From Colwellia polaris (GTDB lineage: Archaea > Nanohalarchaeota > Nanosalinia > Nanosalinales > Nanosalinaceae), in contig JBLGBK010000001.1 in NCBI GenBank assembly GCA_047617785.1, forward strand, positions 1 to 64,000: DNA of 64,000 nt, read 5' to 3'. Below the pieces are notes generated by a model. The model was not told where the DNA came from. It saw only the letters and a program-made list of their open reading frames with translations, and searched no databases. The translations under genes were made by a program, and so were the position numbers. This document shows positions 45,724-64,000 of the stretch, piece after piece; position 1 is the first letter of the stretch, and each line of letters begins with the position of its first letter.

Positions 45724-45981
45724 TTATTCACCTTGCTGTTCTAGGTAGTGGCTTACTTTTCTGTTCATGAGCCATAGTTCTCTACCGATTATCATCAGTG
45801 CAAGCATTGTAATCCATGGCTGGATATCTCGTCCGAATGATACCAGTGTGTCTGCCTGTGATGAGTAGAGTGCAGTCCATAGTGCTGTTGCTATTGCACC
45901 TACTGACAGAATCACGATTACAAATTCGTCTAGTACATTTTCTACATTGTATAGGTAGTTTCGGAATCTTTCTAGATTCAT
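45724..45981 (-). CDS. Small 2-TM membrane protein
   Basis: Two hydrophobic helices, tightly spaced in the operon. Confidence 0.7.
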   Translation of the reverse strand: MNLERFRNYLYNVENVLDEFVIVILSVGAIATALWTALYSSQADTLVSFGRDIQPWITMLALMIIGRELWLMNRKVSHYLEQQGE

Positions 45982-45982
45982 T

Positions 45983-46120
45983 TTAGAAGCCTCCTCCCAT
46001 TCCCATGCTGTTCTTACGCATATTCATAACTTTTGCAATTACGAAACCGGCTGCCACTCCGATTAGAAGTACATCAGGATTGGCCATTGCGCCGCTCATT
46101 ATTTGTTCCATTAGTGCCAT
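45983..46120 (-). CDS. 45-aa single-TM microprotein with Gly/Met tail (not in ORF track)
   Basis: MALMEQIMSGAMANPDVLLIGVAAGFVIAKVMNMRKNSMGMGGGF. Its tail encodes a GGAGG SD for the next gene. Confidence 0.75.
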   Translation of the reverse strand: MALMEQIMSGAMANPDVLLIGVAAGFVIAKVMNMRKNSMGMGGGF

Positions 46121-46171
46121 GGTTTTTCTTTTCCTCTAGTAATGCTGTTTATGTGCTCCTTGTTTAAATAA

Positions 46172-47215
46172 TTAAACCGGGGCTGCCTTTTGATTCATAG
46201 AACCCTCCATACCCGTAGAAGGCTTTTTCCCGGATTTGTTGGTCTGGGTAACTTCTAGATGAGAAGCATAGTCTTGATCGAGAGAATCATATTCAAAATT
46301 GTCTTTTGTTCTATAATGTATGTAATCGGCTATCTCTTCATTTATATCGATCTCAGTTGAATACTCTTCGTTTATTGCTGTACCCATATCCGAATTGACT
46401 TCTAATCCAACTATTTCCCCCTCGGAAGTCTTCATATAGTCAAATGCTGCTACTTCTAGTCCTTCCGTTGCATCTAGTGCGGCATCTATTTCGTAGTCAA
46501 ATATTTCCCCTGAATCTGTGTAATTTCCTCCGTTTGAGAGGTTATTCGCAAATCCTGCACCATTCTCTCTAGCTGCTATTTCTAGGACAGTTGCATCTTC
46601 TCCATCTCCTAGAACTATTGCCCTACAGTCCTTTACATCTTCATGGTCTATTGCCTCTTCTAATCTATAACTATCATTTTCTAGCTCTTCAATATAGGAT
46701 TCAAGATTGCTTTCTTCCTGAAGTTTTCTAACACCATTGCCACAGCAGTTACGAGAGGGCTTGGCAACTACCGCATTTTCTTCAATTATTTCGAATGCCT
46801 CTTCATCATTAAACTCTTGTGTCATTCGAACATTTTCATATTCCGAGAATTGTTGTTCTAAGTAGTCTGCAGTTCTGTTTTTGTCTTTATGATACCAAGA
46901 AACGTATGGATCTTGGATAAATCCTGTTTCCGTCTCATTTTCAATTCTCTTGAGATCTGCTACAGTTTTCTTTTGTTCTTCTTCATTCATGCCTGCAGTG
47001 AACATTTTATGCCTGTAGAAGACGGATTGGTCTTGCAGTTTATCAATTTCACCTGCAGATAGATCGGTTACTTTGAAGCCATCCTTATCTAGCTGGTTAA
47101 TTGTCTTTCTTCTTGTCGGCGTGTCTACCTGTCCAGCGTATAAAATGTCGGCATCTTCGGTATCGGTAGAAGACAGTATTCTATCAGACTTGCTTTGGAA
47201 CAACCAGCCAAACAT
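46172..47215 (-). CDS. RimK/LysX-type ATP-grasp ligase
   Basis: VAKPSRNCCGNGV, DCRAIV, FANNLSNGG, AAFDY and LEVN motifs. Confidence 0.85.
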   Translation of the reverse strand: MFGWLFQSKSDRILSSTDTEDADILYAGQVDTPTRRKTINQLDKDGFKVTDLSAGEIDKLQDQSVFYRHKMFTAGMNEEEQKKTVADLKRIENETETGFIQDPYVSWYHKDKNRTADYLEQQFSEYENVRMTQEFNDEEAFEIIEENAVVAKPSRNCCGNGVRKLQEESNLESYIEELENDSYRLEEAIDHEDVKDCRAIVLGDGEDATVLEIAARENGAGFANNLSNGGNYTDSGEIFDYEIDAALDATEGLEVAAFDYMKTSEGEIVGLEVNSDMGTAINEEYSTEIDINEEIADYIHYRTKDNFEYDSLDQDYASHLEVTQTNKSGKKPSTGMEGSMNQKAAPV

Positions 47216-47247
47216 AATTAGTTATTCGACAGTAAAAATTAAGTTGA

Positions 47248-48816
47248 TTATGAACCAAGAACTTCATCAACAGCATCAATCCCCTCATCTAATTTTTTCA
47301 GAATCTCTTCATCATCCTCAATCTTATGCTCTTCGGTCATTAACATGCCTTTAAGAATATTTACAGTATCATCTTTCACCGAATCAATACTATCTCGCAA
47401 ATTAGCTGAAGTAGTCAAGCCACCTACCTCGCTTGCAACCTCACTGCATATATCATCTATAAGATCGTCAACACTATCAGAGTTATTCTGAAGCATATCC
47501 ACCATATTTTGTATATCGCTAGGGTTCTCTATTGCCAACTCATGCTTAACTCTTCTCTTAGCTTCTTCCAAATTGTCCTTTATATCTTGTAGCTCGGATT
47601 TATCCTTCTGTAGGTGATTTTCCAAGTACTCTATGTGCTTATTCATAGTTCTGTGATGATCGAATAATTTACGATCCTCCACTTCCCTAGCAGCCTCTTT
47701 TATAACTTTTTCTTTGTCTTCTGCCTCCTCAACCTCTTTTAAAAGCTTCTTTAAGGCTTTTACAGACCTAACAATCTCTTTAGTATCAGCTATAAGACTA
47801 TTGAGCTCATCATCAAGCACAGCAACATCATGCTCATCCTTAGACTGTATTCTATCAGCAGCCGATCTTATTTCAGTTATATCGTGTAAAGCAGCTTTTA
47901 AACCGAAATTTTTGTACTTATCAGGTAAGTCTTTGCTTCCTAAGTCGGAGTTGCTATTCTGAAATAGATTCTGTCCATTAATCACATCGCCCTCAGTATA
48001 ACCAGAGCCCGTATTCGCTTTGTTGTAAAGTAGTTCTAGAGCATTTCGAAAGTTATTGATTCTTGCACCAACCTGTCTGTAACTGGCTGAACTGCCTCGC
48101 CCCGGATTATTTACCGCGTCTATAATAGCATTGATATCTGAATTAATATCTTGCTCAGACTGATGAATTGCCGGTTCGATATGACTGTAAGCACTTTCAA
48201 TATCGTCTACTGCCTCCTCCAAGTCTACTGCGTTTTTAGAGGCGTTACCCCCGTTACCGTTCCCGCCACCTCCTATATTATTTAGCTCTTGTCTTGCATC
48301 CTTTATCTCCTGTAGGCCCTGATTCAATGCTTTACCCGTCTTCCCAGTTGTCCAAGCCACTCCTGCTGCACCCCCTCCGAGAACAGAAATAAGAAGTGCT
48401 ATCACCCCAAAAACCAGGGCTACTACAAGAATCTGTTGGATATCCCAGATCAGTCCTAAAGGCTCTATCCAGTGGCCGGCCCCCATCATAGATATTATTA
48501 GGAGCAGTGATAGGACCGCAAGCAAGTTTCTTTTATTTTCAGCTTGACCTATGCCTCCAGATTCTAGATTGAACAGTTGTTGAAGATCAAACTTGACTAC
48601 TAGCTTCTTTAGAATCATGTAAACTGATACCCACAGAAGACCAAAAGTAGCTGCTATGCCGATATTATGCATTAAACTACCTGACTTAAGACCTACAAAA
48701 GAAATAATACCCTCAAATGAAGATAATGAAGTCTCTTGACCATGTGAAGCAGCGGTAAAAGACACCAAAAAATATGTCAGACCCGCAATTAAGGCAGATT
48801 TTAGTTTAGTTCTCAT
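47248..48816 (-). CDS. Signal peptide + 3-TM module + long helical/coiled-coil domain
   Basis: Likely start is MRTKLKS, with TAA-SHG. The N-terminal half is paralogous to 49828-50565. Confidence 0.75.
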   Translation of the reverse strand: MRTKLKSALIAGLTYFLVSFTAASHGQETSLSSFEGIISFVGLKSGSLMHNIGIAATFGLLWVSVYMILKKLVVKFDLQQLFNLESGGIGQAENKRNLLAVLSLLLIISMMGAGHWIEPLGLIWDIQQILVVALVFGVIALLISVLGGGAAGVAWTTGKTGKALNQGLQEIKDARQELNNIGGGGNGNGGNASKNAVDLEEAVDDIESAYSHIEPAIHQSEQDINSDINAIIDAVNNPGRGSSASYRQVGARINNFRNALELLYNKANTGSGYTEGDVINGQNLFQNSNSDLGSKDLPDKYKNFGLKAALHDITEIRSAADRIQSKDEHDVAVLDDELNSLIADTKEIVRSVKALKKLLKEVEEAEDKEKVIKEAAREVEDRKLFDHHRTMNKHIEYLENHLQKDKSELQDIKDNLEEAKRRVKHELAIENPSDIQNMVDMLQNNSDSVDDLIDDICSEVASEVGGLTTSANLRDSIDSVKDDTVNILKGMLMTEEHKIEDDEEILKKLDEGIDAVDEVLGS

Positions 48817-48826
48817 AAATCTATCT

Positions 48827-49819
48827 TCAATTATTTTGTGCTGATTGAGATACCTTTTGCCACATTTCAGATAATTTGTTAATAGCCTCTTGCTCGCCCT
48901 GCTCTTCAAGAGTCTTAAACTTGATCATTTTCTCTAGTTGTTGATTTATAGATTTCATACCTTCTTCTAAAGTTTCTAACTCACCTACAATCTCTTCAGC
49001 TTCCTGGGATCGGTCAGTCTTACTTGCTCTTCCAGGTCCATCTGTTGATGTCTGTACACGTTCTTTTACAAGAGGTTCAAGCCGCTGTTTTATCTCTTTG
49101 AAAAGTTTCTTATCTTCAGTAAGATCTTCCTTCAGCTCTTGTATTTCCTCTTTATTCAACTGTGCTTCGTCATTTATAGCCGAGTCTACCTCTTGGAGTT
49201 CCTGAGCAAGTCTTTGCGCCTTATTGTCCATATTGCTGTAGTGCTCTTCTGCAGTACTCTCAGCACCATCTGCTTCTCTAAGTAGTCCAAGAACATCATC
49301 ATAACCTTCTTGCTGGGCTATAGTTCTCAGACCCTCCTCGATATTCCTTATCTTGTGAAGCTGATTCCTAAGTTGTGCCATAGACTGAAAAGTAGCATTA
49401 AGTTCAATTACGTCTTCAATAGCCTCCTCTACTTCAATCTCAACATCATACTGCTCCTCTTGAAAATTATCTTGAAAATCACTAAGAGCATTTGCAGCAT
49501 CACGTACTCTTTCAAGTTGGTCATGGAGATAGTTGAGGAGCTCATCTTGAGATCTGGATTGCGATTCTTTCTTTATGTCTTTGTTTATCGCTACAAAATC
49601 CTTATGTATCTCTTTAAGATCTCTTAACTCTTTATTTTCATCCTGCATAACTTGCTTGGCTGCTTGTTTTATTTCTTCAAGCCGTTCGATATCTTCTGTT
49701 ATCTCTTTTTCAATAAATTCTTCCATTTCTATATCTTTTTCCAAAGCTTGTTCTAATGATTCTGCCGCCTCATAAAGCTGCTGATGGATTTTCTCTCTAT
49801 TGGGATTATCTTCTGACAT
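48827..49819 (-). CDS. Soluble coiled-coil protein
   Basis: All-helical and heptad-rich. AGGTG SD lies before ATG 49819. Confidence 0.75.
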   Translation of the reverse strand: MSEDNPNREKIHQQLYEAAESLEQALEKDIEMEEFIEKEITEDIERLEEIKQAAKQVMQDENKELRDLKEIHKDFVAINKDIKKESQSRSQDELLNYLHDQLERVRDAANALSDFQDNFQEEQYDVEIEVEEAIEDVIELNATFQSMAQLRNQLHKIRNIEEGLRTIAQQEGYDDVLGLLREADGAESTAEEHYSNMDNKAQRLAQELQEVDSAINDEAQLNKEEIQELKEDLTEDKKLFKEIKQRLEPLVKERVQTSTDGPGRASKTDRSQEAEEIVGELETLEEGMKSINQQLEKMIKFKTLEEQGEQEAINKLSEMWQKVSQSAQNN

Positions 49820-49827
49820 TATAACAC

Positions 49828-50565
49828 CTAAAGACTGTTTGAACAACCACTGCCATTACACGTTTTAGCACTCTGTGGATTTAATTTATAACAATTTGAA
49901 CACACTTTAAAGCCTAAGCTATTAGCTGCGCTCGCATATTTATTGCCTGCTTGATTTACATATTTATTGGCACCAAAAACGCTTTTTGCACTACTAGCAT
50001 ATTTTTTAGCTCCGTTGACTCCACGCTTAGCAGCACTAGATACTCCTGCTTTGTCTAGACCATCTTTAGCTTTTCCTCCGCCCCATGCAAGAGCCTTTCC
50101 GGAGGCACCCACGGAGGCTAAAACTCCTGCGCTACCGCCTCCGACGACAGCTATAACAAGTGCAACTATTCCAAACACTAGTGCTAGTAAGAGAACCTGT
50201 TGAATAGTCAGTAGGACGTTGAAGTATGTATGTGCGCCCGTCATCATGACTATCACAATTAAGAGAGATAGTATTGCCCCAAGGTTTCTACTACTTCCTC
50301 CACTGCTTCCTATTGTGCTGCTACTTCCGCCCATGTTGAACAGGCTTTGCAAGCCAAACTTGTTTACCAGCTTCTTTATAATTAGATAAACTGCGAACCA
50401 CATCAGACCGAAAGCTGAGGCAGACGCTACTAGTTGACGCCAATTTTCAGTAGGGAGCGGTATCTGTGTGAGAAGACCGAATAGACCTCCTGATTCGCCA
50501 TGAGATGCAGTTGCTATAGAAGTGAAGGAGATAAGAAGAGAGGTTAAAATGGTTTTTTTGTTCAT
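49828..50565 (-). CDS. Signal peptide + 3-TM module + basic tail with zinc ribbon
   Basis: ATA-SHG and a C-terminal CSNC...CNGSGC zinc ribbon. Confidence 0.75.
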   Translation of the reverse strand: MNKKTILTSLLISFTSIATASHGESGGLFGLLTQIPLPTENWRQLVASASAFGLMWFAVYLIIKKLVNKFGLQSLFNMGGSSSTIGSSGGSSRNLGAILSLLIVIVMMTGAHTYFNVLLTIQQVLLLALVFGIVALVIAVVGGGSAGVLASVGASGKALAWGGGKAKDGLDKAGVSSAAKRGVNGAKKYASSAKSVFGANKYVNQAGNKYASAANSLGFKVCSNCYKLNPQSAKTCNGSGCSNSL

Positions 50566-50602
50566 GCAGTAGTTAATCAGCTCCTTCTTTAAATTAATTT
50601 AC

Positions 50603-51055
50603 CTAAAATACTGCTTTCACGATCATATAGACAACTACTAGCCCTGCACCAATGAATAGTATATATGTCAGCCCTCCAAATACGATGAAAATCAATTCGT
50701 TTATATCCTGGAAAAGCTTCGTAGGAACTAGCATCAATGTCACGGTCAAAGCTATAAGCGTCGCGTACTTGTTTCGCTGTTTCCTTTTAGCCTTTTTATC
50801 CTGAGCCCATTCATCATCAGGGCTTAAAGCAAATTTTAGCGCCTGCTTTAGTCCTATCTGGAAGATGAAAAATATTAGTAGAAACGGAGCAACTAGCTCT
50901 GTAAGCAGCTCAACATTCGATTCATAGTGAGGTATCTGAAAATTCTCATACGGATTGTCAGTTCCTGTCGAGCCATGAAAAGATGCTGCTGCTCCAGAAA
51001 CCATCAACATCAGGAATATGAGACTATAGAAGGCTTTAGAAGTCAAAGTCGTCAT
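50603..51055 (-). CDS. Signal peptide + 3-TM module protein
   Basis: Likely start is ATG 51055 after GGAGGTGA. AAA-SFHG and APFLLIFFIF...NKYATLIAL. Confidence 0.72.
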   Translation of the reverse strand: MTTLTSKAFYSLIFLMLMVSGAAASFHGSTGTDNPYENFQIPHYESNVELLTELVAPFLLIFFIFQIGLKQALKFALSPDDEWAQDKKAKRKQRNKYATLIALTVTLMLVPTKLFQDINELIFIVFGGLTYILFIGAGLVVVYMIVKAVF

Positions 51056-51302
51056 CTCCCATGTCACCTCCCATATCAGCATCCATACCGCCACCGCCGC
51101 TTCTGATATGTTGGAGATACGTAGGAAGCATCTCATCAATAATAAATCCTGCAAGCAAACCAGTAGCGGCTGCAACCGCATATTCTCCTGCAAATGGCTG
51201 TAATCCAACCATCTTTGCAAATGACTCTCCCGTCACGCTAGCAGCAGCTAGTCCGGATGCGGCGGAAGCGGGGAAGGCTAAGAATTTCCAGGGATCGTTC
51301 AT
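51036..51302 (-). CDS. Small 2-TM protein with Gly/Met/Asp tail
   Basis: Ala-rich helices, GLLAGFII, and tail GGGGMDADMGGDMGDDDFDF. Confidence 0.72.
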   Translation of the reverse strand: MNDPWKFLAFPASAASGLAAASVTGESFAKMVGLQPFAGEYAVAAATGLLAGFIIDEMLPTYLQHIRSGGGGMDADMGGDMGDDDFDF

Positions 51303-51386
51303 GTAGTACTATTCCCTTAACATAAATTTAAATATAAATTATCGACAGGTCTTCAAAGAAGAGATAAAGGAAACATGTAGGACTGC

Positions 51387-51929
51387 TTACTGAGGTGATT
51401 GCGTACCCTTCAACAGTTTCTTTATTGAGACCAAAGTTTGATCTGCTTGACTTTGGTGCTCATCTACTTGCTGAATAATCTTGGCAGTCTCCTGCATATC
51501 ATTTTCAGCGATTTTCTCATGCTCAATCTCTCCTTTAATACGTTTCTCAATATCAGAAATCTCGTTTTCTAGACTTTCAGCTTCTGATAATGCAGAATCA
51601 AGGTCCTCTCGCAGCCTATTTATCTCCTGCTGAACCTGATCATTATTATTTCCTCTCAAATCGTCCCATAGACTCTTAGACTGTTGTTGAGCTTTCTTCT
51701 CCTTTAAATCAGAAACTATCTCGCCAATTTCCTTTTCTTTCGCCTTTAAATCCTCAAGTTTTTGCTCGGCGTCTTCGGCTTCCTCAACAACTGTGTGATC
51801 CATCTGTATAGTCTTCTTCATCTCCTCGATTTCTTCCTTGGAGTCCTTTATAATCTGCTCTAATTCTTTTTTCTCTTCATTTTCTCTTCCTATTGCCGAA
51901 TTAATCGTACCCATAACATCTCGATCCAT
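51387..51929 (-). CDS. Coiled-coil hairpin protein
   Basis: Two long helices joined by SLWDDLRG. GAGGT SD upstream. Confidence 0.75.
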   Translation of the reverse strand: MDRDVMGTINSAIGRENEEKKELEQIIKDSKEEIEEMKKTIQMDHTVVEEAEDAEQKLEDLKAKEKEIGEIVSDLKEKKAQQQSKSLWDDLRGNNNDQVQQEINRLREDLDSALSEAESLENEISDIEKRIKGEIEHEKIAENDMQETAKIIQQVDEHQSQADQTLVSIKKLLKGTQSPQ

Positions 51930-51982: not shown

Positions 51983-52219
51983 TCAAGAATTACGAAATTT
52001 TCCAAGTCTTTCTAGCGTTTCCAGAATACCCCATGCGTAGATTACCGATTCCCATGCACGTATATAGTCTTCTTCCTCAAGAAAGTGAGAGGTATCATCA
52101 CGGTAGGCGAGGACATTCTCCATCTGTTCTACATCTTTATCTCTGTCTTCAAGCCTACCTTCAAGGCGTTCCAACCATTTCTCTGTTTCTTGTTTAAGCT
52201 TTTCCTGTGTCTTGTTCAT
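51983..52219 (-). CDS. DUF357 family protein
   Basis: AYRDDTSHF...YAWGILE. Conserved neighbour of dph5. Confidence 0.85.
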   Translation of the reverse strand: MNKTQEKLKQETEKWLERLEGRLEDRDKDVEQMENVLAYRDDTSHFLEEEDYIRAWESVIYAWGILETLERLGKFRNS

Positions 52220-52974: not shown

Positions 52975-53994
52975 TTGAACCAGGAAAAAATTGAGGAAAA
53001 AGCAGCAGGACTTTTCGAAAGACAAGGATTCGAAGTCGAAAAGAGCAGTAATAGGTTCAGCGCTGTAAAAGATAAAAACAAATTAGAGTTTCAGGTTTTC
53101 TCCTCAGAAAAATACAGAATAGAAGATGTTGAAGAGAAGGCGGAGGATGTAAACACCGTTTTCGTTGATGAGGAATTGAAGGATATCGATGTTGAAGGTA
53201 AAGTATCAGTTCTGAAAGATGAAGAAAATAGTAAAGATTACGATCTGCCTAGTTTCGAGTTAATCGGCGATATAGCGGTTATAAACGATCTTGATGGGCG
53301 GGAGGAGAAAGACGTTGTTGAAGGTATCAAGGAGAATCACCCTCATATTGAAACTATGCTTCTTAAGGAGGAACAACTTTCTGGAGAGTTCCGTGTAGGA
53401 GAGTACAGAAAACTTTACGGAGAGAGTACAGAAACAGTGCATACCGAGTTCGGAGTTGATATCAAGGTCGATCCGACAAAAACATATTATTCAGAGCGTT
53501 TCTCAACGGAGAGAAGACGTGTAGCTAAGCAGATAGGGTCAGGAGATAAGGTTCTTGTAATGTTTGCTGGCGTCGGACCGTTCGCATTGATCGCTGCAAA
53601 ACATTCAGAAGCAGAAAAAATAGTTGCAGTTGAGAAAAATCCTGAAGCCTGCGAATACCTGAAAGAAAACATAGAGTTAAACAACTATGAGAGCAGGATA
53701 GAAGGCTATTGCGGAGATGTAGAGAATATTCTGCCAGAATTGAATAAGAAGTTCGATCATATAGTAATGCCTCTACCAGGAAAGGCCAATGAATTCCTAA
53801 AGATAGCAGAAAAAGCTGCCTCAGAAAATGCAACGATACATTACTATCGTTTCATGGAAGAAGATAGAGAGGAACAGCTAAGAGCAGAGATCAGCGATAT
53901 CCTGGATAGAGGTTTCAGCATCAAGGGAATCGTGGAATGTGGTGAGAAAAGTCCTTCTACCAAAAGAGTTTGTGTCGATATAGAACTCGAATAG
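52975..53994 (+). CDS. trm5: tRNA (guanine37-N1) methyltransferase, Trm5/TYW2 (Met-10+) family
   Basis: IGDIAVI, GEFRV, YYSERFSTER, MFAGVGPF and MPLP motifs. Confidence 0.9.
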   Translation: MNQEKIEEKAAGLFERQGFEVEKSSNRFSAVKDKNKLEFQVFSSEKYRIEDVEEKAEDVNTVFVDEELKDIDVEGKVSVLKDEENSKDYDLPSFELIGDIAVINDLDGREEKDVVEGIKENHPHIETMLLKEEQLSGEFRVGEYRKLYGESTETVHTEFGVDIKVDPTKTYYSERFSTERRRVAKQIGSGDKVLVMFAGVGPFALIAAKHSEAEKIVAVEKNPEACEYLKENIELNNYESRIEGYCGDVENILPELNKKFDHIVMPLPGKANEFLKIAEKAASENATIHYYRFMEEDREEQLRAEISDILDRGFSIKGIVECGEKSPSTKRVCVDIELE

Positions 53995-54042: not shown

Positions 54043-54618
54043 ATGGCAACTAGACGCGAGATTCTAGCCGGAGTAGGTTTGGCAGTCGGCGGAGGAACAG
54101 TGGCTCTTGCAGGCGATCACGTAGCAGAAAATTACAAGTTACAAGACCCAATTGACATAGACCTAAGATCTCCATTAACAAAGAAGCGAGATAATGGAAA
54201 AACCCCTGTAGATAACCACTCTGATTTTGAAGGTGGTGATCCACCAAGTAACGTCGAAGATGGCGACAACAATGGTAACGGGGAGCGCTACGAAGACGAC
54301 GACAGCGACTCTACTCCATGGTTCGAGACGTATGACGTAGGGGACTTCACAGAAGACCTGTATAACGAATCTGATTATTCAGTTGCAGTCACAAACGACT
54401 TCCTGCTTGATGCCTACGAAGAAGGAGGCGAAGAAATATACAGAGCATTAGTCGAAGATGACGAACTAAAAGTAAATGACAGTGGCCCAGCGCACCTCTA
54501 CAACGACACTCCCGGACTAGGATACTCCGAAGATTTTGGAGGCAAAGTAGAGACGCTAAGCAGAGAGGACGAATTAGAAGAGCTTCTCGAAGACTACGTC
54601 GAAGAAGAATTAGGATAA
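54043..54618 (+). CDS. Acidic protein with twin-arginine (Tat-like) signal peptide
   Basis: MATRREILAGVGLAVGGGTVALA|G. GAGGT SD upstream. Confidence 0.75.
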   Translation: MATRREILAGVGLAVGGGTVALAGDHVAENYKLQDPIDIDLRSPLTKKRDNGKTPVDNHSDFEGGDPPSNVEDGDNNGNGERYEDDDSDSTPWFETYDVGDFTEDLYNESDYSVAVTNDFLLDAYEEGGEEIYRALVEDDELKVNDSGPAHLYNDTPGLGYSEDFGGKVETLSREDELEELLEDYVEEELG

Positions 54619-54730
54619 ATTCTTCTGCACCACAAACATATTTTTACTACATTTTCTTTCCTTAATTTCTAGCCACTATAGACAACGAATATAAAATTTA
54701 GAGCCTGTTATTAGACTTGAGTGATAAATA

Positions 54731-55738
54731 ATGCCACTAGGTAGATTGATTTTTGGGCAAGGCGGATTAATTGCTATGGACAAAGCCGGGAAAGCTGCCG
54801 AAAGACTTGCAGAATATCTTGAAGACGAACAGTATGATTCTGTCAGAGTGGATAGACACACAATTGATAGACCTGGCTCTTCCGAGGAAGACTATAGCGA
54901 AACCAATCTAATACCTAAAGAAACATATGATACTGTTTTCATACCCGAAGGACAGGAGCCAGGTTTAGTTCCTGTAGAAAACTATACTATTTTTAGTCAA
55001 AACCCTGAAGAAAACAATAAAGGAGGTGACAATATCATGACAGAACTTGAAAGCGACTATTTCCAAGAACGTGGAGCATCCGCAGTAGAAGCAATAGAAG
55101 GCGACTCCGCAGACGATTACAGCGATGAAGAACTTGAAGCATACGGTGTTGCTCTAGATCTCTGGCTAGCAGAGAACGGACAAATTGAAGAAGTTTCAGA
55201 CGGAGACCTTGCAGCTTACGCTCAAGATCAAGGGCTTCTGACAGAAGTAATGGCTGCCAAAGAAACATATCAAGACCATCTCAACCTCGATGGAGCATAT
55301 GAAGAGCTCCTAGATCAGACGGAAGAACGAACAGGAGACGCTGGACACGCAGTAATCGAAGTACAGCAGCTAGAGTACTTTGTTGACCGTATGTCCGAAG
55401 GAACAGAAAGAGTAGCACAGGCTCACGAAGAAACAGAACCAACCTATGAGCTACTACGAGAAACTCTCTCAAGCGGTGCAGACACTATCGACACAGCTGT
55501 TGACCGACTACTATCCGCAGGAGAATCCAAAGGAGTAGACATGGGTCGACCAGAAGATTTAGAAACAGACATAGAGTATCTTCAGATCCTAAACCAGTCA
55601 ATTGACGATGCTGAAGAAGAACTAGAGAACAGACAGGAAGATGGAGAAGATATAGATTTTGAAAGACTCAGACGGCTCGAGGAGCGAACACAAGACAGAA
55701 AAGGAATGGGAGAATCTCTAGATCGACTTGAAGATTAA
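54731..55738 (+). CDS. Acidic helical hypothetical protein (start uncertain; strong internal start at 55037)
   Basis: Long ORF with AGGAGGTGA at 55021-55029 before the in-frame ATG 55037. Confidence 0.65.
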   Translation: MPLGRLIFGQGGLIAMDKAGKAAERLAEYLEDEQYDSVRVDRHTIDRPGSSEEDYSETNLIPKETYDTVFIPEGQEPGLVPVENYTIFSQNPEENNKGGDNIMTELESDYFQERGASAVEAIEGDSADDYSDEELEAYGVALDLWLAENGQIEEVSDGDLAAYAQDQGLLTEVMAAKETYQDHLNLDGAYEELLDQTEERTGDAGHAVIEVQQLEYFVDRMSEGTERVAQAHEETEPTYELLRETLSSGADTIDTAVDRLLSAGESKGVDMGRPEDLETDIEYLQILNQSIDDAEEELENRQEDGEDIDFERLRRLEERTQDRKGMGESLDRLED

Positions 55739-55839
55739 AAACCAGTTCTGCTCCTTTTTCTCTATATTTTTTACAAAACATTGTACCGGGAAAAATACCC
55801 ACACAAAAATAATTTAACTTTTACTACTCATGAATAACT

Positions 55840-56493
55840 ATGAGCTCTGACAATTCAGATCCTATAGACGACTTATATGACGAGACTGTAGATCAGACAG
55901 AAGAACGTGAGAGCTTAGCAGGAAGACTTCTTGAGAGATATAAAGGATACAGAGAAGGACTCTCCGAAGGCGGCATTAGCATCCAACAGACAGGTCTCAT
56001 AAATATTGCTCGAATAGGAGACGATAGAGAAGAAACAACAGAAAGTCAAGAAGAAACTGGAGAGACACCAACCCGAAGAGACTTTATGAACGGCGTCAAA
56101 AAGACAGGTCTTTTACTTGCAGGCGGTGCAGCAGCCGGAGGAGCCGGAGCAGCAGTATGGGAGGCTTTTGACGAGGACGAAGACACAATATATAATATAG
56201 TCAACAACTACGAAGACGGAGAAGATTCTCCTCCACCATTATACACAGAGTCCTTAGACTACAGAAGCGAACTTGTAGTAGAACAGTTCTTCCAAGATAA
56301 TGAGGGCGCTCTAGGAAGAGAACTCACTCCCGGAGATATAGAAATTGGAGAGAACTATTTCGAAGGAGATTTCGAGAACGGTGAAAGGCTAAATTATGAA
56401 GAAGAGAACAGCTTCAACGAAGAAGAAGTCAAATACATGAATTCTATTGAAGATGAAGAGGATTTAGAGCACGCATTCAACCCACTTTTCTAG
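55840..56493 (+). CDS. Acidic protein with an internal twin-arginine motif and TM helix
   Basis: TRRDFM...LLLAGGAAAGGAGAAVW, after about 77 extra N-terminal residues. Confidence 0.72.
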   Translation: MSSDNSDPIDDLYDETVDQTEERESLAGRLLERYKGYREGLSEGGISIQQTGLINIARIGDDREETTESQEETGETPTRRDFMNGVKKTGLLLAGGAAAGGAGAAVWEAFDEDEDTIYNIVNNYEDGEDSPPPLYTESLDYRSELVVEQFFQDNEGALGRELTPGDIEIGENYFEGDFENGERLNYEEENSFNEEEVKYMNSIEDEEDLEHAFNPLF

Positions 56494-56577
56494 AGTTTTT
56501 ACTCACGAGTAACAAAAGGTATTTAAAGGTTGGCGCTCCAGTTAGTACTACAATACTACAACAGGTGAATAACTAAA

Positions 56578-57933
56578 ATGTCAACCAGCGGAAGCGGAAG
56601 TCCAGGATCTAGCAGCACAGGAAGCTCCGGATCCTCATCATCAATAAACCTAACAAGAAGAAAAGTACTTGGCGGGATCGGTGCAGCAGGCGGCGCAGCA
56701 GTCGGAGGATGGCTACTGTCTCGAGATTCAGATATACCAGGATATGAAGATCAATCGGAATTCGACGAACACACAAGAGTTCTTCAAGAAGCTGAGAAAC
56801 AGCTAGCAGAAGTAAGTAATGAATACGATAATATTCAGAACAAAGAGCTAAGCGATCTGCTTCAAGGAGAAACAATGCGTGTAGGCCAGTCAACAGAACT
56901 GAACAGCACCAACTTCTTCGATGCAGACAGTCATGACCTGACTTATTCTGAGAACCCCTCATCCACAGGAGGAGAACTACCTAACGACGTAGTCCAAGAT
57001 CCTGCGTACATGCTATCCTTCGAAGGAGAAGGAAGCACATTCGAGATAGTAAACGGTGATGGAGACACAGAGGCATCAGAACAGCGATTTACGGCCTTTG
57101 ATGGAACAGACATAGGCCTGGACTTCGAGAGCGATATTGTTGAAGAATACGGGATGCAGATTGAAAGCGACATAGAAGCAGCTCAGAACGCATTTAAAGG
57201 CGCACAAGGCGCAAGAGTGATGGTTCCAACAACACTCTCAACTCAACAGCCAGTAGTCAATCCGGCGACACTTGAATCAGCTCTAGACGATATAGAGGAA
57301 CTCGAAGAAGATCTAGAAAACACCTACGAAGAAGCAGTAAGCAAAGGAATGGAAATCGACCAATACCAGAATGAACTAACAAACGGTCTCGAAGATGCAG
57401 AAAAGAGAAAAGGAGTCTTCGGAGTCAGCGCATTCGGTGGCGGCGTAGAAGACAAACAACAGGCAGAACAGCTACTCGAAAGAACTAACGAACTCAACAC
57501 CGAGTACCAAGACTTCACCACCAATGTTGCAGCCAACCTTGCTGAAACCAGAGTAATGAAGGAAGCAGTAAGCAGAGCTTACAACCGATCTGAAGAGATT
57601 TTCAACAATTCAGAGTACAGCAGCATCTTCCAAGAAGTCGAAGTTGAAGGAGAAGACATGACCGGAGTCAAGCTCGGCGAAGTTAGAAACTGGGATTCAA
57701 TCGACAACCAAGCAATGGGCGACGACAACTATCTCCAAGGCGAAGCTGATGACCTAGGACTAGATGCAAACGAAACAGGAAAAATGGTCGTAGTCTACGA
57801 TGGAGAAGATACTTATCTCGCTAACCCAGAAAACGGCGAGTACACAGAATCACACCTACCAGACGGACCTGACGGTCAAGATCTGTTCGAAGACATCAGC
57901 GACGGCGTCTACGACGGATCACTTGAAGGCTAA
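56578..57933 (+). CDS. Acidic coiled-coil protein with twin-arginine signal
   Basis: Ser/Gly-rich leader, then TRRKVLGGIGAAGGAAVGGWLL. AGGTGA SD upstream. Confidence 0.75.
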   Translation: MSTSGSGSPGSSSTGSSGSSSSINLTRRKVLGGIGAAGGAAVGGWLLSRDSDIPGYEDQSEFDEHTRVLQEAEKQLAEVSNEYDNIQNKELSDLLQGETMRVGQSTELNSTNFFDADSHDLTYSENPSSTGGELPNDVVQDPAYMLSFEGEGSTFEIVNGDGDTEASEQRFTAFDGTDIGLDFESDIVEEYGMQIESDIEAAQNAFKGAQGARVMVPTTLSTQQPVVNPATLESALDDIEELEEDLENTYEEAVSKGMEIDQYQNELTNGLEDAEKRKGVFGVSAFGGGVEDKQQAEQLLERTNELNTEYQDFTTNVAANLAETRVMKEAVSRAYNRSEEIFNNSEYSSIFQEVEVEGEDMTGVKLGEVRNWDSIDNQAMGDDNYLQGEADDLGLDANETGKMVVVYDGEDTYLANPENGEYTESHLPDGPDGQDLFEDISDGVYDGSLEG

Positions 57934-58010: not shown

Positions 58011-61000
58011 ATGAAAAAACAAATTCTAACAATTCTAACAGCACTCCTTTTCGTAAGCAGTGCAACAGCAGCACAACTAACGGTATATCTAGAAGATAGC
58101 GGAGGCAGCCCTGTAGAACAGGGAACAATTACAGTTGAAGGTATAAACAACAATTTCTACGAAACAAAAGATACTGGCGACGACAGCTACTCCAGCTTCT
58201 TTGACCTCCCTGCAGGAGAAAAATACCAGATTTCAGCAGAAACAGATACATTATCAGGATCTACCGAGAGCGTGGTTAACGATGGAGATGGCGTAACGTT
58301 AACACTTACCGACGACGGGAGCGGTGGAGGAGATCCTGGAAACGAGGGTGATGTATTCAGCATCACAGAAGTAACAGCAAGCAATTTCGAGCCAGAGAAA
58401 GGTGAGGAAACAGAGCTTAGAGCAAATATACAGAACAACTGGGATACTCAGGAAGAAACAACAGTTCAATGGTATGCGGTCGGTAATGGTGAAGAAATTA
58501 ATCTAGGAAGTAGAGGCAAAGACATACAAGGAGGAGAAACAGAAACTCTTAGAAGATCAATATCATGGCAGCAACTAAAAGACAAAGGGCTAGAAGTAGG
58601 AAACAAATACGATCTCAAAGCAACAGCAGCAGACAATACAGGAGAAATCATAGATGAGAGAACAGGAGATACTGCTTACATTGAACTTCAGCCGTACGAA
58701 CTAGCAGATCTTAAGGTTTACGTAGATGATGAAAACGGAAATACGGTTAATGACCCAAAGGTAATCGTAAGCAGCGCAACTTTTTCAAAGACTATAGATA
58801 ACCAAAACAACCCTGAATTCGAAAATCTGGAACCAGGCTCCTACGGAATTGACGTTGAAAAATCCGGCTACCAGACTGTAGAGAGAACCGTAGAGCTGGA
58901 ATCGGGTCAGAACGAGGAACGCTTCACTCTTGAATCAACTGATAGCAATAACCCTGTAGAGATATCGGAATATGGTGCAGATTATCGTGGTTCCGGAAAA
59001 GTGCGTTTCAATCTGAAACTGAACCAGGACGTAGATAATGATTACAGCTGCAGAGTAAGCGAAAACAACCAGATTACAGAACGTGATACACAGGAAAACA
59101 ATGGCGGAATCATGGAAAAAGTTTCAGGAAGCAACAAACGTTTCAGAGTCGATCTATACTTCGAGGAAGGAGACTACACTCGATACCTAGGCTGCATGAA
59201 TGAGAATGGCGAACAGATTACAGACGCCAAAAAAGTAGAATTCTCAGTAGATTTAGATGATGACATATCTGTTTCACCAAACTACCCAATCAACAACGAC
59301 GAAGTCGAGAACCCTGTAGAATTCTCATGGAATGTAGACAACTCCCAAAACATTGATCTTGAATACGATCTTGAGATAACAGATGATAACGGAGACACCG
59401 TAGAAACAGTAGATGGAATAGATGAAACCACTCATACATTAGATAATGACCTGAAAACTGGAGATTACGAATGGAGTGTAGACGCAATTGATAACAACGG
59501 AGATGTAAGAGATAGTTCAAGCAAGGCCTCATTCAAAGTAGTAGACGATAGCGAGTACGAACTTGAAGCAGATTTCGACTACAGTCCTTCCAGTCCTGAA
59601 GAAGGCGAGGCAGTAGAGTTTGAGTCAACTAGTTCCGGAGATATAGAGGAATGGAACTGGGACTTTGACGATGGAAACGTTGATGAAGGAGAGACCGTAA
59701 CACATACTTTCGATGACGAAGGAGAGTACCTTGTTGAACTTGAAGTTGACGACGGAGAAAACACAGATACAGAGACAAAGCTTGTTGAAGTAGGTCAGCA
59801 AGCCGGTGCATGTAATATTGACGTCGGCGATCTGCATGTTGATCCGGAAAAGATTCCTACTGGAGCAGAAAGCGAAGTCTCAGTAACAGTAGAGAACAAC
59901 GGACAGGAACAAGATATCGTAGTAACCTTCGAAGTCAACAGCGATGAACATAGCGTAGAAGAAGACACTCTGGAAAGCGGAGAAACAGAAGAATACAGCA
60001 TAACAATAAGTCCTGAAGACGATGTTGGTCTCCGAGCAATAGTTGAAACTGATGGCAGCGGCGACAATCCTTGCAGCTACTACAGATGGGATCGAACGGA
60101 CTACCTACCCGTCTACCAGGCTGGTACGAACAACGATGCAACATTCAACTTCAACGTTGAAGATGATGATGGCGACGAACTTGAAAACGTTAGAATAAGA
60201 GGAGAAAATGGAGAAACTTTCACACGTTACACAGATGATGATGGTGAAGCTTCAGCTGACGTTGAAAGAGGTACATACGAGATAACAGCATCCAAACCAG
60301 GCTATGAGTCAGAGACAAAGACACGGACAATCGATAGCGGAGAAACAAAGACAGTTGACTTCACACTTGATAGAAAAGAAGATGCAGAAGACATCGGAGA
60401 ACTATCAATACTGACAGAAGACCTTGACGAAGAACCTATCGAAGATGTACAGATAACCGCAGAAAATGGAGATGATGAAACAGAGTATACTGACGAAAAT
60501 GGTAGAGCATTCTTCTACCTAGAAGAAGGTGACTACACAGTAACAGCAGAGAAAGACGGCTACCACACCCAGACCAGAGATGTAGAGATCGAGGCCGGTG
60601 AAAGAACTCCTGTGCTGTTCAAGATGACAGATGAAGACGAGGACAGCGTAAGGATAACCAACCTCGATTATTCCGATACAGTATGTAGAGGAGACACGCT
60701 AGAAGTAACAGTCTCAATAGCAAACAGCAGAGATTCCGATGAACTAGTAACCTTCCGGGGAGAAGGATTAGGATCAGACTCTAAAAGAAGCGTAGTCACT
60801 AAGAAAGGAGAGACAATAACTCGAATAATGAGATTCACAAACGTACAGGGTTCAGGCAACCAAGATTTCACAATATCAATCGATAACTCTGTACACGACT
60901 TACAGACAGGAACAGTTGAAGTAGAACGCTGCGGATTCGAAGAACCAGATCAGGAGGCCACCGGATTAACAGCCGAAGTAAGTCCACGAACCGTTCAAGT

Positions 61001-61832
61001 CGGCGAAACAGTCAGAGTACAAGGATTTGTCGATGGTATCAGAGGTTCAGCTGAAGTAAAAATTGAATCTAACGGAAACACTATTGCAAGAACCAGCACA
61101 GACAGATCCGGTTACTACTCAACCTACACTAGGTTCAACAGTCCTGGAACAAAGAATATTGAGGTAAGTTCAGGGGGGCTTACACGTTCAAGAACTGTTG
61201 AAGTACTTGCAACCGCAAACGTTGGAGGGATTTACTCTCCAAGACAGGTTTTCGAATCAGAAGAGTTCGAGATATGTGCAGACGTAAGTTCACAGGTTCA
61301 GGCAGATGTAGTACTGCTCAGAAACGGAGAAGTAATCGAATCAAAGAAAGGTAACGGTCGCGTATGCTTCACTACAGAAGCAGGTGAACCGGGAACAGCG
61401 ATTTACGAAATTAGAGCTCTAACAAGCGGAACAGGAGGAAGCTCAACTAAAAGCATCGAAGTGCTTGAGCAAGGTAACGAGGTCGAAAGCTTCCCTGATC
61501 AGTTAGCATCTGTTGAATCCGGAGGGAGTATAGCACGTGTTGAACTCTACAACACAAATGATGATCTGAGAACTTACGATTTAAGTCTTTCAGGTATCGA
61601 TGAGAGATGGTATTCGCAATCAGACGATACGGTGAAGTTGAGCAGTGGTGAGAGAGATACTGTTTACTTCTATCTGACACCACGAGCAGAGGGAGAGTAC
61701 CGGCCAACTCTGAGAGTAGATTCGAATGGAGAGACAATCTACGACAATGAGATAATCCTTGAAGCAGAAGGAACAGATAGACCGCAGAGGGTAGGACTTG
61801 TTCAAAGGATTATTCGTTTCTTTACTTGGTAA
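58011..61832 (+). CDS. Large secreted multi-Ig-domain surface protein (PKD, PEGA/carboxypeptidase-regulatory-like, CARDB-like)
   Basis: Sec signal ...SATA|AQ, PKD motif WNWDFDDG...HTF, and repeated GxYxxxxxKxGY motifs. Confidence 0.85.
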   Translation: MKKQILTILTALLFVSSATAAQLTVYLEDSGGSPVEQGTITVEGINNNFYETKDTGDDSYSSFFDLPAGEKYQISAETDTLSGSTESVVNDGDGVTLTLTDDGSGGGDPGNEGDVFSITEVTASNFEPEKGEETELRANIQNNWDTQEETTVQWYAVGNGEEINLGSRGKDIQGGETETLRRSISWQQLKDKGLEVGNKYDLKATAADNTGEIIDERTGDTAYIELQPYELADLKVYVDDENGNTVNDPKVIVSSATFSKTIDNQNNPEFENLEPGSYGIDVEKSGYQTVERTVELESGQNEERFTLESTDSNNPVEISEYGADYRGSGKVRFNLKLNQDVDNDYSCRVSENNQITERDTQENNGGIMEKVSGSNKRFRVDLYFEEGDYTRYLGCMNENGEQITDAKKVEFSVDLDDDISVSPNYPINNDEVENPVEFSWNVDNSQNIDLEYDLEITDDNGDTVETVDGIDETTHTLDNDLKTGDYEWSVDAIDNNGDVRDSSSKASFKVVDDSEYELEADFDYSPSSPEEGEAVEFESTSSGDIEEWNWDFDDGNVDEGETVTHTFDDEGEYLVELEVDDGENTDTETKLVEVGQQAGACNIDVGDLHVDPEKIPTGAESEVSVTVENNGQEQDIVVTFEVNSDEHSVEEDTLESGETEEYSITISPEDDVGLRAIVETDGSGDNPCSYYRWDRTDYLPVYQAGTNNDATFNFNVEDDDGDELENVRIRGENGETFTRYTDDDGEASADVERGTYEITASKPGYESETKTRTIDSGETKTVDFTLDRKEDAEDIGELSILTEDLDEEPIEDVQITAENGDDETEYTDENGRAFFYLEEGDYTVTAEKDGYHTQTRDVEIEAGERTPVLFKMTDEDEDSVRITNLDYSDTVCRGDTLEVTVSIANSRDSDELVTFRGEGLGSDSKRSVVTKKGETITRIMRFTNVQGSGNQDFTISIDNSVHDLQTGTVEVERCGFEEPDQEATGLTAEVSPRTVQVGETVRVQGFVDGIRGSAEVKIESNGNTIARTSTDRSGYYSTYTRFNSPGTKNIEVSSGGLTRSRTVEVLATANVGGIYSPRQVFESEEFEICADVSSQVQADVVLLRNGEVIESKKGNGRVCFTTEAGEPGTAIYEIRALTSGTGGSSTKSIEVLEQGNEVESFPDQLASVESGGSIARVELYNTNDDLRTYDLSLSGIDERWYSQSDDTVKLSSGERDTVYFYLTPRAEGEYRPTLRVDSNGETIYDNEIILEAEGTDRPQRVGLVQRIIRFFTW

Positions 61833-61920: not shown

Positions 61921-63678
61921 GTGACAATTATGAACTCGAAAAGTTCCAAACTTGGAATACTATTCGCACTATTAACTCTTACAACAACAATGGCTGCAGC
62001 CAGTCCAGCCGAAATGTACATATTCCCTGGCGAATCTGACGTCAGAATTGATTCATTTACAGAATACGAGGTAGAACTTGAGAACACAGGAACCACAGAG
62101 GACGTTTACAGCATTTCATCATCTAGCTCCGAAGTCACAGTTGAACCTTCGAGAGCACCTACCGAAGGCACGTTAGCTCCGGGCGAAAGCACAACACTTA
62201 ACGTCTGGTACAATCCAGACACTGACAGAGAAGCCGGAGAGCATTCTTTCACTATTGAGGCCAAGTCACGTGCCTCAGGCGAGACATATACCGTACAAGG
62301 CATAGCAAACGTAATTAGAGGTCACGACGTAGCAATTACTGGCTCTGCAAGCAAGGTCGCTTGCCTCGGAGAAAAGGCTCAATACCAGTTCACAGTAGAG
62401 AACCGTGGAATGCAGCCTGAAGAATTCCAGCTAACAACAGAAAGAGGAGAGATCTCTCAGAGCAGAGTAAACCTTCAGGAAGGAGAATCGAGAACAGTCA
62501 TAGTGACAACTTCTTCAAAAAGCGAAGTCGACACAAACTTCAACGTAATAGCTGCATCAACAACCAGTTATGCACAGAGCATAAAGACTGTTAACTTCCA
62601 GGCAGAGACCTGCTACAATTCTGAAGTTAGCGTAACACCTCAGAACCGAGAGACAGCTGCTTACACAGAAGCAGAGTATGATGTAACAGTTAGAAACCTT
62701 GGAACAAAAGCAGACACATTCACACTTTCAGCTTCCAACGGCGACTTCAGCAGCAACCAGATAGAAGTCGGTGCAGAAAGCACGGAGACAACCACGCTCA
62801 GATACACACCAACAGAACTCGGATCACAGAGCATCAAAATAACTGCAGAAGGACTTTCAACAAGCAGTCAGACAGTACAGCTTGAAGCTTACAACGGAAT
62901 GGAAGTAGACACTTCCTTCAGTCAGAGCAGCTACACAGTCTGCGAGAATGAAGAAACAACTGCAGAAGCACAAGTTACAAACACAGGAGAGGCAACAGAC
63001 ACATTTACTCTATCAACAAACAAAGGTGCACTTCAGACAGAAGAAGTCGAACTAGCACCAGAAGAAACAGAAACAGTAGAAATTGACTTCAGCGGAAACA
63101 ACTATGAAGAAGGAAGCAGCACAACTGTAAACCTAGAAGCAGTTTCACAGACATTTGAAGAAACAAGCAGCACCTCAGAAACATCTCTCAACGTAGAGAA
63201 CTGCTGGGATCTAAAGATGAACGTTGTACCAACAGTACTGAGCGCAGGAGAGAACCGAAGCGCAGTATTCGAAGTCAAGCTGGAGAACACAGGTACAAAA
63301 GAGAACACCTACGCATTAGATCACGAAGGACCTGACTGGGTATCAGTAAGACCTGAAGAAGTAACAGTAGCAGCAGGAAAGACTGGAACAGCATATATCT
63401 ACGCAGGAATCCCTTACGAGAAGAAAGGACAGGTTCAGATCACAGCGGAAGCAGTAGGAACAAACGTCACAGAATCAGAAGACGTAACACTTGTAGTAGG
63501 TAAAGAAGTAGAAGATGCAATCCGGAACGGAGAAAACAAAGTAACAGGCTCGTTCACACAGAACCTCTCTGACACGGTCAAAAAACTTGGAAACTCCAGC
63601 TCACTGGTCAAACTGCTCGGAGCAATCCTAGCAGGGCTACTTCTCACAGGAATCATCCTTTACCGGGAAACCCGGTAA
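61921..63678 (+). CDS. Membrane-anchored surface protein with about 5 Ig-like repeats (COG1470/NEW3-like)
   Basis: Signal peptide, repeated NxGxxxDxF/YxL...GES units, and a C-terminal TM helix with basic tail. Confidence 0.85.
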   Translation: MTIMNSKSSKLGILFALLTLTTTMAAASPAEMYIFPGESDVRIDSFTEYEVELENTGTTEDVYSISSSSSEVTVEPSRAPTEGTLAPGESTTLNVWYNPDTDREAGEHSFTIEAKSRASGETYTVQGIANVIRGHDVAITGSASKVACLGEKAQYQFTVENRGMQPEEFQLTTERGEISQSRVNLQEGESRTVIVTTSSKSEVDTNFNVIAASTTSYAQSIKTVNFQAETCYNSEVSVTPQNRETAAYTEAEYDVTVRNLGTKADTFTLSASNGDFSSNQIEVGAESTETTTLRYTPTELGSQSIKITAEGLSTSSQTVQLEAYNGMEVDTSFSQSSYTVCENEETTAEAQVTNTGEATDTFTLSTNKGALQTEEVELAPEETETVEIDFSGNNYEEGSSTTVNLEAVSQTFEETSSTSETSLNVENCWDLKMNVVPTVLSAGENRSAVFEVKLENTGTKENTYALDHEGPDWVSVRPEEVTVAAGKTGTAYIYAGIPYEKKGQVQITAEAVGTNVTESEDVTLVVGKEVEDAIRNGENKVTGSFTQNLSDTVKKLGNSSSLVKLLGAILAGLLLTGIILYRETR

Positions 63679-64000
63679 TCAATTTTTCTTTCTACATTCT
63701 CTTTATCTTCTTTCCTTATCACTAAACTATCAACTAGGCAAGACTAGAACTAGGTAAAGACACTTAGTCCTTAGAACCAACTCTTTGAAGTATAGAGAAC
63801 CTATATAGAAATAGAAGAGTCCTCTGAAGATGTGGATGCCTCTAAGGGAAAATAGCTTATTGTTCACAAACAACAATAGACTGTTAGATACATCAAGAAG
63901 ATCTAGTTTATCTAAAATACCTAGGATAAAAGAAGAAAAAAGAAAAGTCCTGATTATCGTGGTTGTACCTCGACCACTAGACTATCACTAATGTAGTATC

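Follow-up and report, generated by a model that had tools for sequence, protein, structure and literature searches.

Four consecutive genes, p1 to p4, at positions 54043 to 57933 of the window (the whole 64,000-nucleotide stretch of nanohaloarchaeal DNA analyzed here) encode very acidic proteins, three of which carry signals of the twin-arginine translocation (Tat) type in an organism that has no Tat translocase. Comparisons of aligned residues and codons indicate that the arginine pair (RR) of these signals is under selection in genomes devoid of tatA and tatC, hereafter Tat-less genomes. The locus is linked to surface-protein genes, and homologues with a lipobox exist. We give roughly an even chance to the reading in which p1, p3, and p4 are surface proteins of the symbiont itself, tethered to its membrane after Tat-independent insertion, probably through Sec. 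The genome of this study (G000) comprises 787 kb in 22 contigs with 863 genes and is 96.55% complete. The four genes, all co-directional, are as follows.

54043..54618, + strand: p1, acidic protein of 191 residues (counted from ATG) with a conserved C-terminal domain
54731..55738, + strand: p2, acidic helical protein of 335 residues with no signal, no RR motif, and no hydrophobic segment
55840..56493, + strand: p3, protein of 217 residues with an acidic N-terminal part (78 residues) and a conserved C-terminal domain
56578..57933, + strand: p4, protein of 451 residues with a Ser/Gly-rich N-terminus of 25 residues, a conserved domain of about 400 residues, and a helical middle

A preliminary description of this DNA, made from its letters, had noted that three of four adjacent, strongly acidic orphan genes carry TRRxxL/M plus a Gly/Ala-rich run, and the open reading frames (ORFs) confirm it: each protein has a pI of 4.05, with 22-27% Asp plus Glu and 5-8% Lys plus Arg, and none matches a Pfam family at E ≤ 0.1. 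In p1, which begins M-A-TRREIL, the arginines are residues 4-5 (54052-57) and are followed by an uncharged Gly/Ala-rich run of 18 residues (7-24; hydropathy, 1.84; Gly+Ala fraction, 0.56); an alternative upstream start is possible at a TTG at 54019. The p3 motif, TRRDFM (residues 78-83; RR at 79-80, 56074-79), is followed by KK and then a run at residues 89-107 (hydropathy, 1.57; Gly+Ala, 0.68). That of p4, TRRKVL, places RR at residues 27-28 (56656-61), ahead of a 19-residue run at 30-48 (hydropathy, 1.47; Gly+Ala, 0.58). The anchor segments thus measure 18-19 residues, a length borderline for a membrane span, with RR or KK on their N-side. None of the three signal regions contains Cys, a lipobox, or a clear signal-peptidase site.

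The curated Tat-signal model TIGR01409 matched p4 at residues 25-44 (56650-56712), scoring 18.2 bits against a cut-off of 16.7 and 22.2 bits in a second search; it stayed below cut-off on p1 and p3, and the Pfam TAT_signal model PF10518 matched none of the four proteins. Tat-signal predictors expect the motif within about 35 residues of the N-terminus, and RR begins at residue 4 in p1, 27 in p4, and 79 in p3. The extra segments ahead of the motif in p3 and p4, remarked on in the preliminary description, are genuine: neither gene offers an ATG, GTG, or TTG downstream of codon 1 and ahead of RR, and translation of the motifs therefore entails translation of the extensions. The first 25 residues of p4 (56578-56652) form an uncharged Ser/Gly/Asn-rich tract that is kept by composition rather than sequence, in 7 of 13 aligned members of its family and in the G058 homologue described below.

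Other searches assigned these proteins to no known family. No NCBIfam family was matched by p1 to p3, and the cluster proteins of relatives gave coiled-coil noise only in Pfam and NCBIfam. PDB sequence searches with p4 and p3 profiles returned coiled-coil noise (E ≥ 0.013) or nothing, and the ESM Atlas offered nothing usable for p4 (best feature score, 0.76, with a pLDDT of 0.46 for the Atlas's own model; TM ≤ 0.27). Paralogy among p1 to p4 was rejected, with BLASTP matches either weak or confined to the signal region.

The Pfam models for TatC (PF00902) and TatA (PF02416), both of which match in 11 of 14 control genomes, found no match anywhere in G000, the window included. Clade-specific hidden Markov models (HMMs), trained on relatives' sequences (four TatC, five TatA) and run with --max on all six-frame fragments of G000, gave best E values of 2 and 0.76, respectively. 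In G006 and G018, tatA-tatC lie directly upstream of the RNase J gene; in G000 the RNase J gene (C3:45114-46430, TIGR00649) and a divergently oriented neighbour have 130 bp between them, midway along an 87-kb contig. The syntenic site of tatAC in G000 is intact and empty, and the closed Tat-less genomes G008 and G020 are arranged likewise. No TatC was detected in the genus (0/3 genomes). Tat is absent from this organism. The earlier statement that the window holds no tatA or tatC gene is therefore borne out by Pfam and clade-specific models alike, and the complete tatAC that would have made these proteins ordinary Tat substrates was not found by HMM search of the full genome.

Among 41 relatives, TatC occurs in 10. 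Nine have tatA and tatC; one has TatC only (G014) and another TatA only, at a contig end (G022), and these two were handled as ambiguous for Tat. That many relatives would lack Tat, as had been supposed in the preliminary description, is thus correct and already appears in passages of PMC9765267. Passages of that paper and of PMC10266531 describe TatC as patchy in Nanohaloarchaeota, present in some family members and not in others, which agrees with the 10 of 41 counted here; the same passages make no mention of Tat-type signals persisting in Tat-less members. According to a passage of PMC10266531, one cultivated nanohaloarchaeon has TatC but no TatA. A small tatA ORF (56-96 residues where read) lies directly beside tatC in 9 of the 10 TatC-positive genomes (G003, G006, G012, G016, G018, G021, G023, G030, and G040), and the published TatC-only annotation might reflect a missed small tatA ORF. 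Presence of tatAC varies even within genus g20, G021 having the genes and G056 lacking them. One further genome, G010, has 13 TIGR01409 matches and no tatAC; since its RNase J gene is cut by the contig end where tatAC is expected, the pair is probably present but unassembled, and this genome was left out of the Tat-less counts.

Conservation of the arginines was followed in homologues of all three proteins. A profile of p4 recovered 11 proteins from 1.84 billion representatives, and a search of 70 genomes of the phylum with the p4 alignment located homologues in three, all without TatC and TatA and one of them closed. All 13 aligned sequences (24-86% identity) share R28; 12 also have R27, and the remaining one reads KR. 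With a further homologue in closed G058, in which RR follows a 25-residue Gly/Asn-rich N-terminus, the pair is kept in 13 of 14, while the C-terminal domains of the family are conserved down to 24-37% identity. At the position of p4's anchor run, a lipobox Cys stands in 4 of the 13 members. R79 and R80 of p3 are invariant in 4/4 homologues, whose N-terminal part spans 78 or about 38 residues. In p1 the pair is kept in 4/4 (its own sequence, P0014 at 60% identity, and proteins of G007 and G008), and Thr/Pro-rich linkers follow the hydrophobic run in p1 relatives. A wider p1 family that included proteins of G001, G002, and G005 was rejected as partly an artefact of such low-complexity linkers, and only G007, G008, and P0014 were counted as p1 homologues. 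A lack of RR conservation among homologues, which the preliminary description had named as evidence against its proposal, was accordingly not seen.

Among orthologues, all in Tat-less genomes, the Arg codons vary synonymously: AGA AGA, AGG CGT, and AGG AGA in p4, and AGA CGC versus AGA AGA in p1. A single change, AGA to AAA, would give Lys. Because the codons turn over synonymously between Tat-less genomes, the pair appears to be held by selection rather than decaying. Composition fails to explain it, since Lys (6.0%) is more common than Arg (4.5%) in the G000 proteome and RR makes up only 7 of the 58 dibasic flanks that precede hydrophobic runs elsewhere in this genome.

Signals of this kind are rare in G000, and their clustering exceeds chance expectation. 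Searching all six frames of the genome for [STNG]RR.[FLIVMA][LMIVF] followed by an uncharged hydrophobic stretch gave nine matches, of which five lie in low-complexity or antisense-looking frames and four in plausible acidic genes, namely p1, p3, p4, and a gene outside the window. The probability that three of four such signals fall within four consecutive genes of 863 is ~1e-4 (193/2,000,000 permutations). The fourth gene is:

G000:C8:803-2074, - strand, outside the window: orphan acidic RR-lipobox protein of 423 residues (SRR; Gly/Ala/Thr-rich run; lipobox LAGC)

It matches no NCBIfam family. Its use as an internal control for export without Tat, as a housekeeping RR-lipoprotein with a dedicated transporter, was dropped because it has no known relatives.

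The cluster lies between a conserved tRNA methyltransferase gene and two surface-protein genes:

52975..53994, + strand: trm5/TYW2-type tRNA methyltransferase (PF02475, E 2.7e-47), the conserved anchor of the locus
58011..61832, + strand: surface protein of 1273 residues with PKD, PEGA, and CarboxypepD_reg domains, the conserved downstream neighbour
61921..63678, + strand: Ig-like surface protein of 585 residues (PF22544, E 1.6e-19) with a Sec-type signal, the second conserved neighbour

Orthologues of trm5, found in 33 of the 41 relatives, served as the anchor, and the 6.5 kb downstream were read in 20 family relatives and G000. The usual layout is trm5, a few very acidic proteins, a surface protein of about 900-1500 residues, and another of about 580 residues, both of the latter with Sec signals. 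The acidic proteins in between differ beyond recognition among genera, making the cluster hypervariable. Clusters with RR anchors nevertheless occupy this place, between trm5 and S-layer-like genes, in relatives with and without tatAC, closed Tat-less genomes included. With a Gly+Ala fraction of at least 0.42 as the criterion and G000, G001, G002, G005, G007, G008, G013, G017, G019, and G020 as the Tat-less set, the segments were flanked as follows.

Tat-less genomes: 20 Gly/Ala-rich segments, with RR in 18, KR in 1, and neither in 1
Tat-positive genomes: 4 Gly/Ala-rich segments, with RR in 3, KR in 1, and neither in 0

Tat-positive G021 has an additional RR segment with a Gly+Ala fraction of 0.38, and the ambiguous G022 has two segments; none was seen in the 6.5 kb after trm5 in G003, G004, G010, G015, and G023. 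Compared to the G000 background, the 18 RR among 19 dibasic flanks of Tat-less genomes give a Fisher p of 5e-11, or 1e-9 without the G000 proteins, values whose independence is overstated by kinship. Of these 19 segments, 11 have RR among the first 45 residues and 8 have it beyond residue 79. Among the closed Tat-less genomes, G008, G019, and G020 carry the textbook motifs RRNFLQ, RRDFAK, and RRQFLK and one RR-lipobox signal; together with closed G058 they lack tatA and tatC and carry the same kind of RR proteins. TIGR01409 scored above cut-off on cluster proteins of G007, G020, and G008, as did PF10518 on one of G007. All three genomes of the window's genus are Tat-less, yet each has its own, unrelated cluster proteins, in which RR is retained.

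The signals were also counted genome-wide by a TIGR01409 search of the 41 genomes at E ≤ 0.05. In controls, the model matched in 11/11 genomes with Tat and 0/3 without. It matched in 9/9 tatAC-positive relatives and in 18 of 30 genomes lacking both tatA and tatC, 17 of them above cut-off. In seven Tat-positive family genomes there are 31 matches: the trm5 cluster accounts for 2, and 11 are no more than about 10 kb away from tatAC. The trm5 cluster contributes 11 of the 21 matches in nine Tat-less genomes, and another five Tat-less genomes show no match; G010 and G011 were set aside from this tally. These positions suggest that Tat-positive relatives have tatAC with nearby cargo, and that in Tat-less ones that set is gone and the RR proteins of the trm5 locus are kept. 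Genes for likely cargo surround tatA-tatC in Tat-positive relatives (G006:C6:3000-18000 and G018:C1:83000-98500; also G003, G012, G016, G021, and G023). The whole set is missing from G000 and resembles a present-or-absent island beside RNase J. In another family of the order, G031 and G035 of genus g27 have no tatA or tatC and yet show 7 and 6 TIGR01409 matches, so the orphan signals are not confined to the window's family.

These results bear on how the proteins reach the membrane. Insertion must be Tat-independent, because the organism has neither TatA nor TatC; that RR segments occur at the trm5 locus of Tat-less genomes, and that all three p4-bearing genomes of the 70 are Tat-less, likewise indicates that these signals do not need a Tat system of the cell's own to function. 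In the reading we favor, p1, p3, and p4 would each use an uncleaved Tat-type signal as an anchor, with the arginine pair in the cytoplasm followed by the Gly/Ala-rich helix of 18-19 residues, and the very acidic C-terminal domains would lie outside, beside the S-layer-like proteins encoded next door. The most probable route of insertion would be SecYEG, perhaps with a DUF106/Oxa1-type insertase; SecY and an EMC3/DUF106-type insertase are present in G000. The pair could be kept because it sets the topology of a weakly hydrophobic helix, or because a recognition partner requires it. We read the proteins as the symbiont's own envelope proteins because of the lipobox homologues, the Thr/Pro-rich linkers, and the Ig/PKD surface-protein neighbours. 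The N-terminal part of p3 would remain on the cytoplasmic side together with p2, which is probably a cytoplasmic partner: p2 and the p3 N-terminal part share a weak local similarity (33% over 46 residues; BLASTP E 0.003), and one coiled-coil family has RR-anchored members next to signal-less ones in G007 and G019. The locus would be a fast-evolving surface module found in most relatives. The proposed topology, the Sec route, and a role at the surface or in host contact are predictions from sequence.

Several points weigh against this reading. The runs of Tat-less genomes are weakly hydrophobic, with a best 12-residue Kyte-Doolittle hydropathy of 1.05-2.07 (mean, 1.56), while neighbouring Sec signals reach 1.97-3.11 with a Gly+Ala fraction of at most 0.35. 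Since they are no more hydrophobic than the runs of Tat-positive genomes (1.38-1.82; mean, 1.66), there is no sign of adaptation to Sec or the signal recognition particle (SRP). A generic positive-inside rule fails to explain the preference for RR over KR, RK, and KK. Haloarchaeal Tat substrates are no longer exported once RR is changed to KK, so a Tat-type signal is not expected to use Sec by default. The genomes compared are kin, which makes their counts non-independent, and RR positions, those of relatives included, rest on simple ORF calls that take the most upstream start.

An unrecognised receptor or translocase, owned by Tat-less nanohaloarchaea and reading an RR plus Gly/Ala-rich signal, would also fit selection that targets RR in particular and weakly hydrophobic runs that form a class of their own. 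The census points the same way, with TIGR01409 above cut-off in 17 of 30 relatives without tatA and tatC compared to 0/3 Tat-less and 11/11 Tat-positive controls. We nevertheless consider such a reader unlikely: a new machine is a costly assumption in genomes this small, and no candidate gene was identified, a phyletic-profile search not having been made.

The preliminary description had proposed that these proteins are effectors delivered into the host and handled by the host's Tat translocase. They would then reach the host cytoplasm via a contact channel and be exported by host TatABC and displayed on the host membrane; alternatively, host-derived membrane that carries Tat complexes would serve the symbiont. 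The premise of this idea stands, in that the organism has no TatC of its own and the RR of its Tat-type signals is conserved, and the weakly hydrophobic runs show no shift toward Sec-type hydrophobicity. Passages of PMC10266531 propose that nanohaloarchaea inject effectors through giant surface proteins, and passages of PMC7443923 report that the host membrane is occasionally breached. Delivery itself, in contrast, found no positive evidence. The cluster is also present in relatives with tatAC and is embedded among the symbiont's own surface-protein genes; p3 has a cytoplasmic-type domain ahead of its anchor, and p2 has no signal. The further suggestion that the N-terminal extensions are delivery signals did not hold, since cargo beside tatAC in Tat-positive relatives has them too: two such proteins, in G006 and G018, bear a helical extension of about 50 residues ahead of RR, so that extensions are not specific to Tat-less genomes. 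We regard the involvement of host Tat as quite improbable and favor the simpler account of symbiont envelope proteins, with the cluster beside S-layer-like genes whether or not tatAC is present, lipobox homologues of p4, and non-specific extensions.

The proteins might also not be exported at all but be cytoplasmic coiled-coil proteins, their Gly/Ala-rich stretch being flexible or binding the membrane peripherally and their RR binding acidic lipids. The runs are Gly-rich and just 18-19 residues long, 8 of the 19 dibasic-flanked segments have RR beyond residue 79, and the N-terminal parts resemble signal-less neighbours. The lipobox homologues, the Thr/Pro-rich linkers in p1 relatives, the linkage to surface-protein genes, and the curated Tat-signal models scoring above cut-off all argue for export, and we judge a cytoplasmic location distinctly unlikely.

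Another explanation is that the motifs are relics, inherited or transferred from Tat-positive nanohaloarchaea and not yet eroded, on proteins that may be non-functional or mislocalised. The varying presence of tatAC within genus g20 (in G021 and not in G056) would allow this, and gene flow would fit a hypervariable cluster and a p4 family found sporadically in 3 of 70 genomes. Decay is, however, hard to reconcile with intact ORFs, with RR kept in 13 of 14 members whose domains are conserved to 24-37% identity, with synonymous turnover of Arg codons in Tat-less lineages when AGA is one step from Lys, and with a wholly Tat-less genus of three genomes that keeps RR in unrelated cluster proteins. 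It is very unlikely that the signals are relics. Finally, that tatAC was missed in G000, being unassembled or too divergent, so that these are ordinary Tat substrates, is extremely improbable, for despite the 22 contigs, the 96.55% completeness, and the precedent of G010 with its 13 matches and an expected site off the contig end, the syntenic site is intact and empty, the clade-specific HMMs find nothing, TatC is found in 0/3 genomes of the genus, and closed G008, G019, G020, and G058 have the same proteins without tatA or tatC.

The signals resemble those of haloarchaea, most of whose lipoproteins are Tat substrates according to Storf et al. 2010 (PMC2945643). Common to both are S/T-R-R-x-hydrophobic-hydrophobic and a Gly/Ala-rich, weakly hydrophobic run on very acidic proteins (the TatFind/TatLipo class), and a lipobox is likewise found in four p4 homologues and in the C8 protein. 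They differ in that the cell has no TatA or TatC, Cys is missing from the signals of p1, p3, and p4, and the p3 motif lies at residue 79. The N-terminus of the Rieske Fe-S protein is an uncleaved Tat signal-anchor, N-in with the globular domain outside, which needs Tat on a protein that carries a cofactor. A similar RR plus hydrophobic helix is proposed here as an N-in anchor, in proteins with no cofactor-binding family and without Tat; among the p1 homologues, the G007 protein matches PF10399 weakly (E 0.0031). Tir of enteropathogenic Escherichia coli (EPEC) is a translocated receptor, a pathogen protein that serves as a docking site in the partner's membrane. It is an analogy for the host-display idea only, its injection system, chaperone, and host localisation having no demonstrated counterpart here.

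Tat signals are thought to be meaningful only with a Tat translocase, and the TIGR01409 control result (11/11 versus 0/3) is in line with this. Here a reduced symbiont clade that has lost tatAC keeps Tat-type signals, their arginine pair under purifying selection, and they are concentrated on fast-evolving surface proteins beside S-layer genes. Either Sec or another factor would read them in a salt-rich cytoplasm, or host machinery would be involved, and either outcome bears on how DPANN symbionts build their host-contacting surface. If host Tat were involved, symbiont proteins would be planted in the host envelope as docking sites, and this would be the first symbiont to address proteins to its partner's Tat pathway. 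Both outcomes can be tested, as several nanohaloarchaeon-host co-cultures and Haloferax genetics exist, according to passages of PMC7443923 and PMC10266531. A literature search found no report of Tat-type signals persisting under selection in Tat-less nanohaloarchaea, although supplementary tables may list predictions, and none, supplements being outside its scope, of such signals concentrating at the trm5/S-layer locus. The patchy distribution of Tat is known, and what appears to be new is that Tat-type signals are kept in Tat-less members and concentrated at this locus. For annotation, export by Tat does not follow from the label "Tat signal domain-containing protein" when a gene of these genomes bears it.

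The genes around the cluster differ in signal type and conservation. The Sec-type signal of the 1273-residue protein consists of KK and a strongly hydrophobic stretch; the protein also gives a weak S-layer glycoprotein match (NF052345, E 1.7e-8, far under cut-off), and its orthologues follow the RR cluster in relatives. Orthologues of the Ig-like protein were seen in G016, G004, G003, G023, and G058. From 63954-64000 of the window and on to G000:C1:66611 run three tandem lipobox proteins on the - strand, whose Sec-type signals have a single Lys and a strongly hydrophobic run; G000 therefore has both Sec-type and RR-type lipoprotein signals.

Upstream, 38707-43144 (- strand) encodes a type IV pilus-like ATPase (PF00437) and a platform protein (PF00482), and 43178-51929 is a block of unknown membrane and coiled-coil proteins. 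The cluster had been described as lying about 2 kb from a pilus/coiled-coil locus, a distance that is right for the end of the membrane/coiled-coil block at 51929 and not for the pilus ATPase and platform genes. An orthologue of 50603-51220 lies upstream of dph5-trm5 in G056 and G058, and an orthologue of 51983-52219 was found in G056 only.

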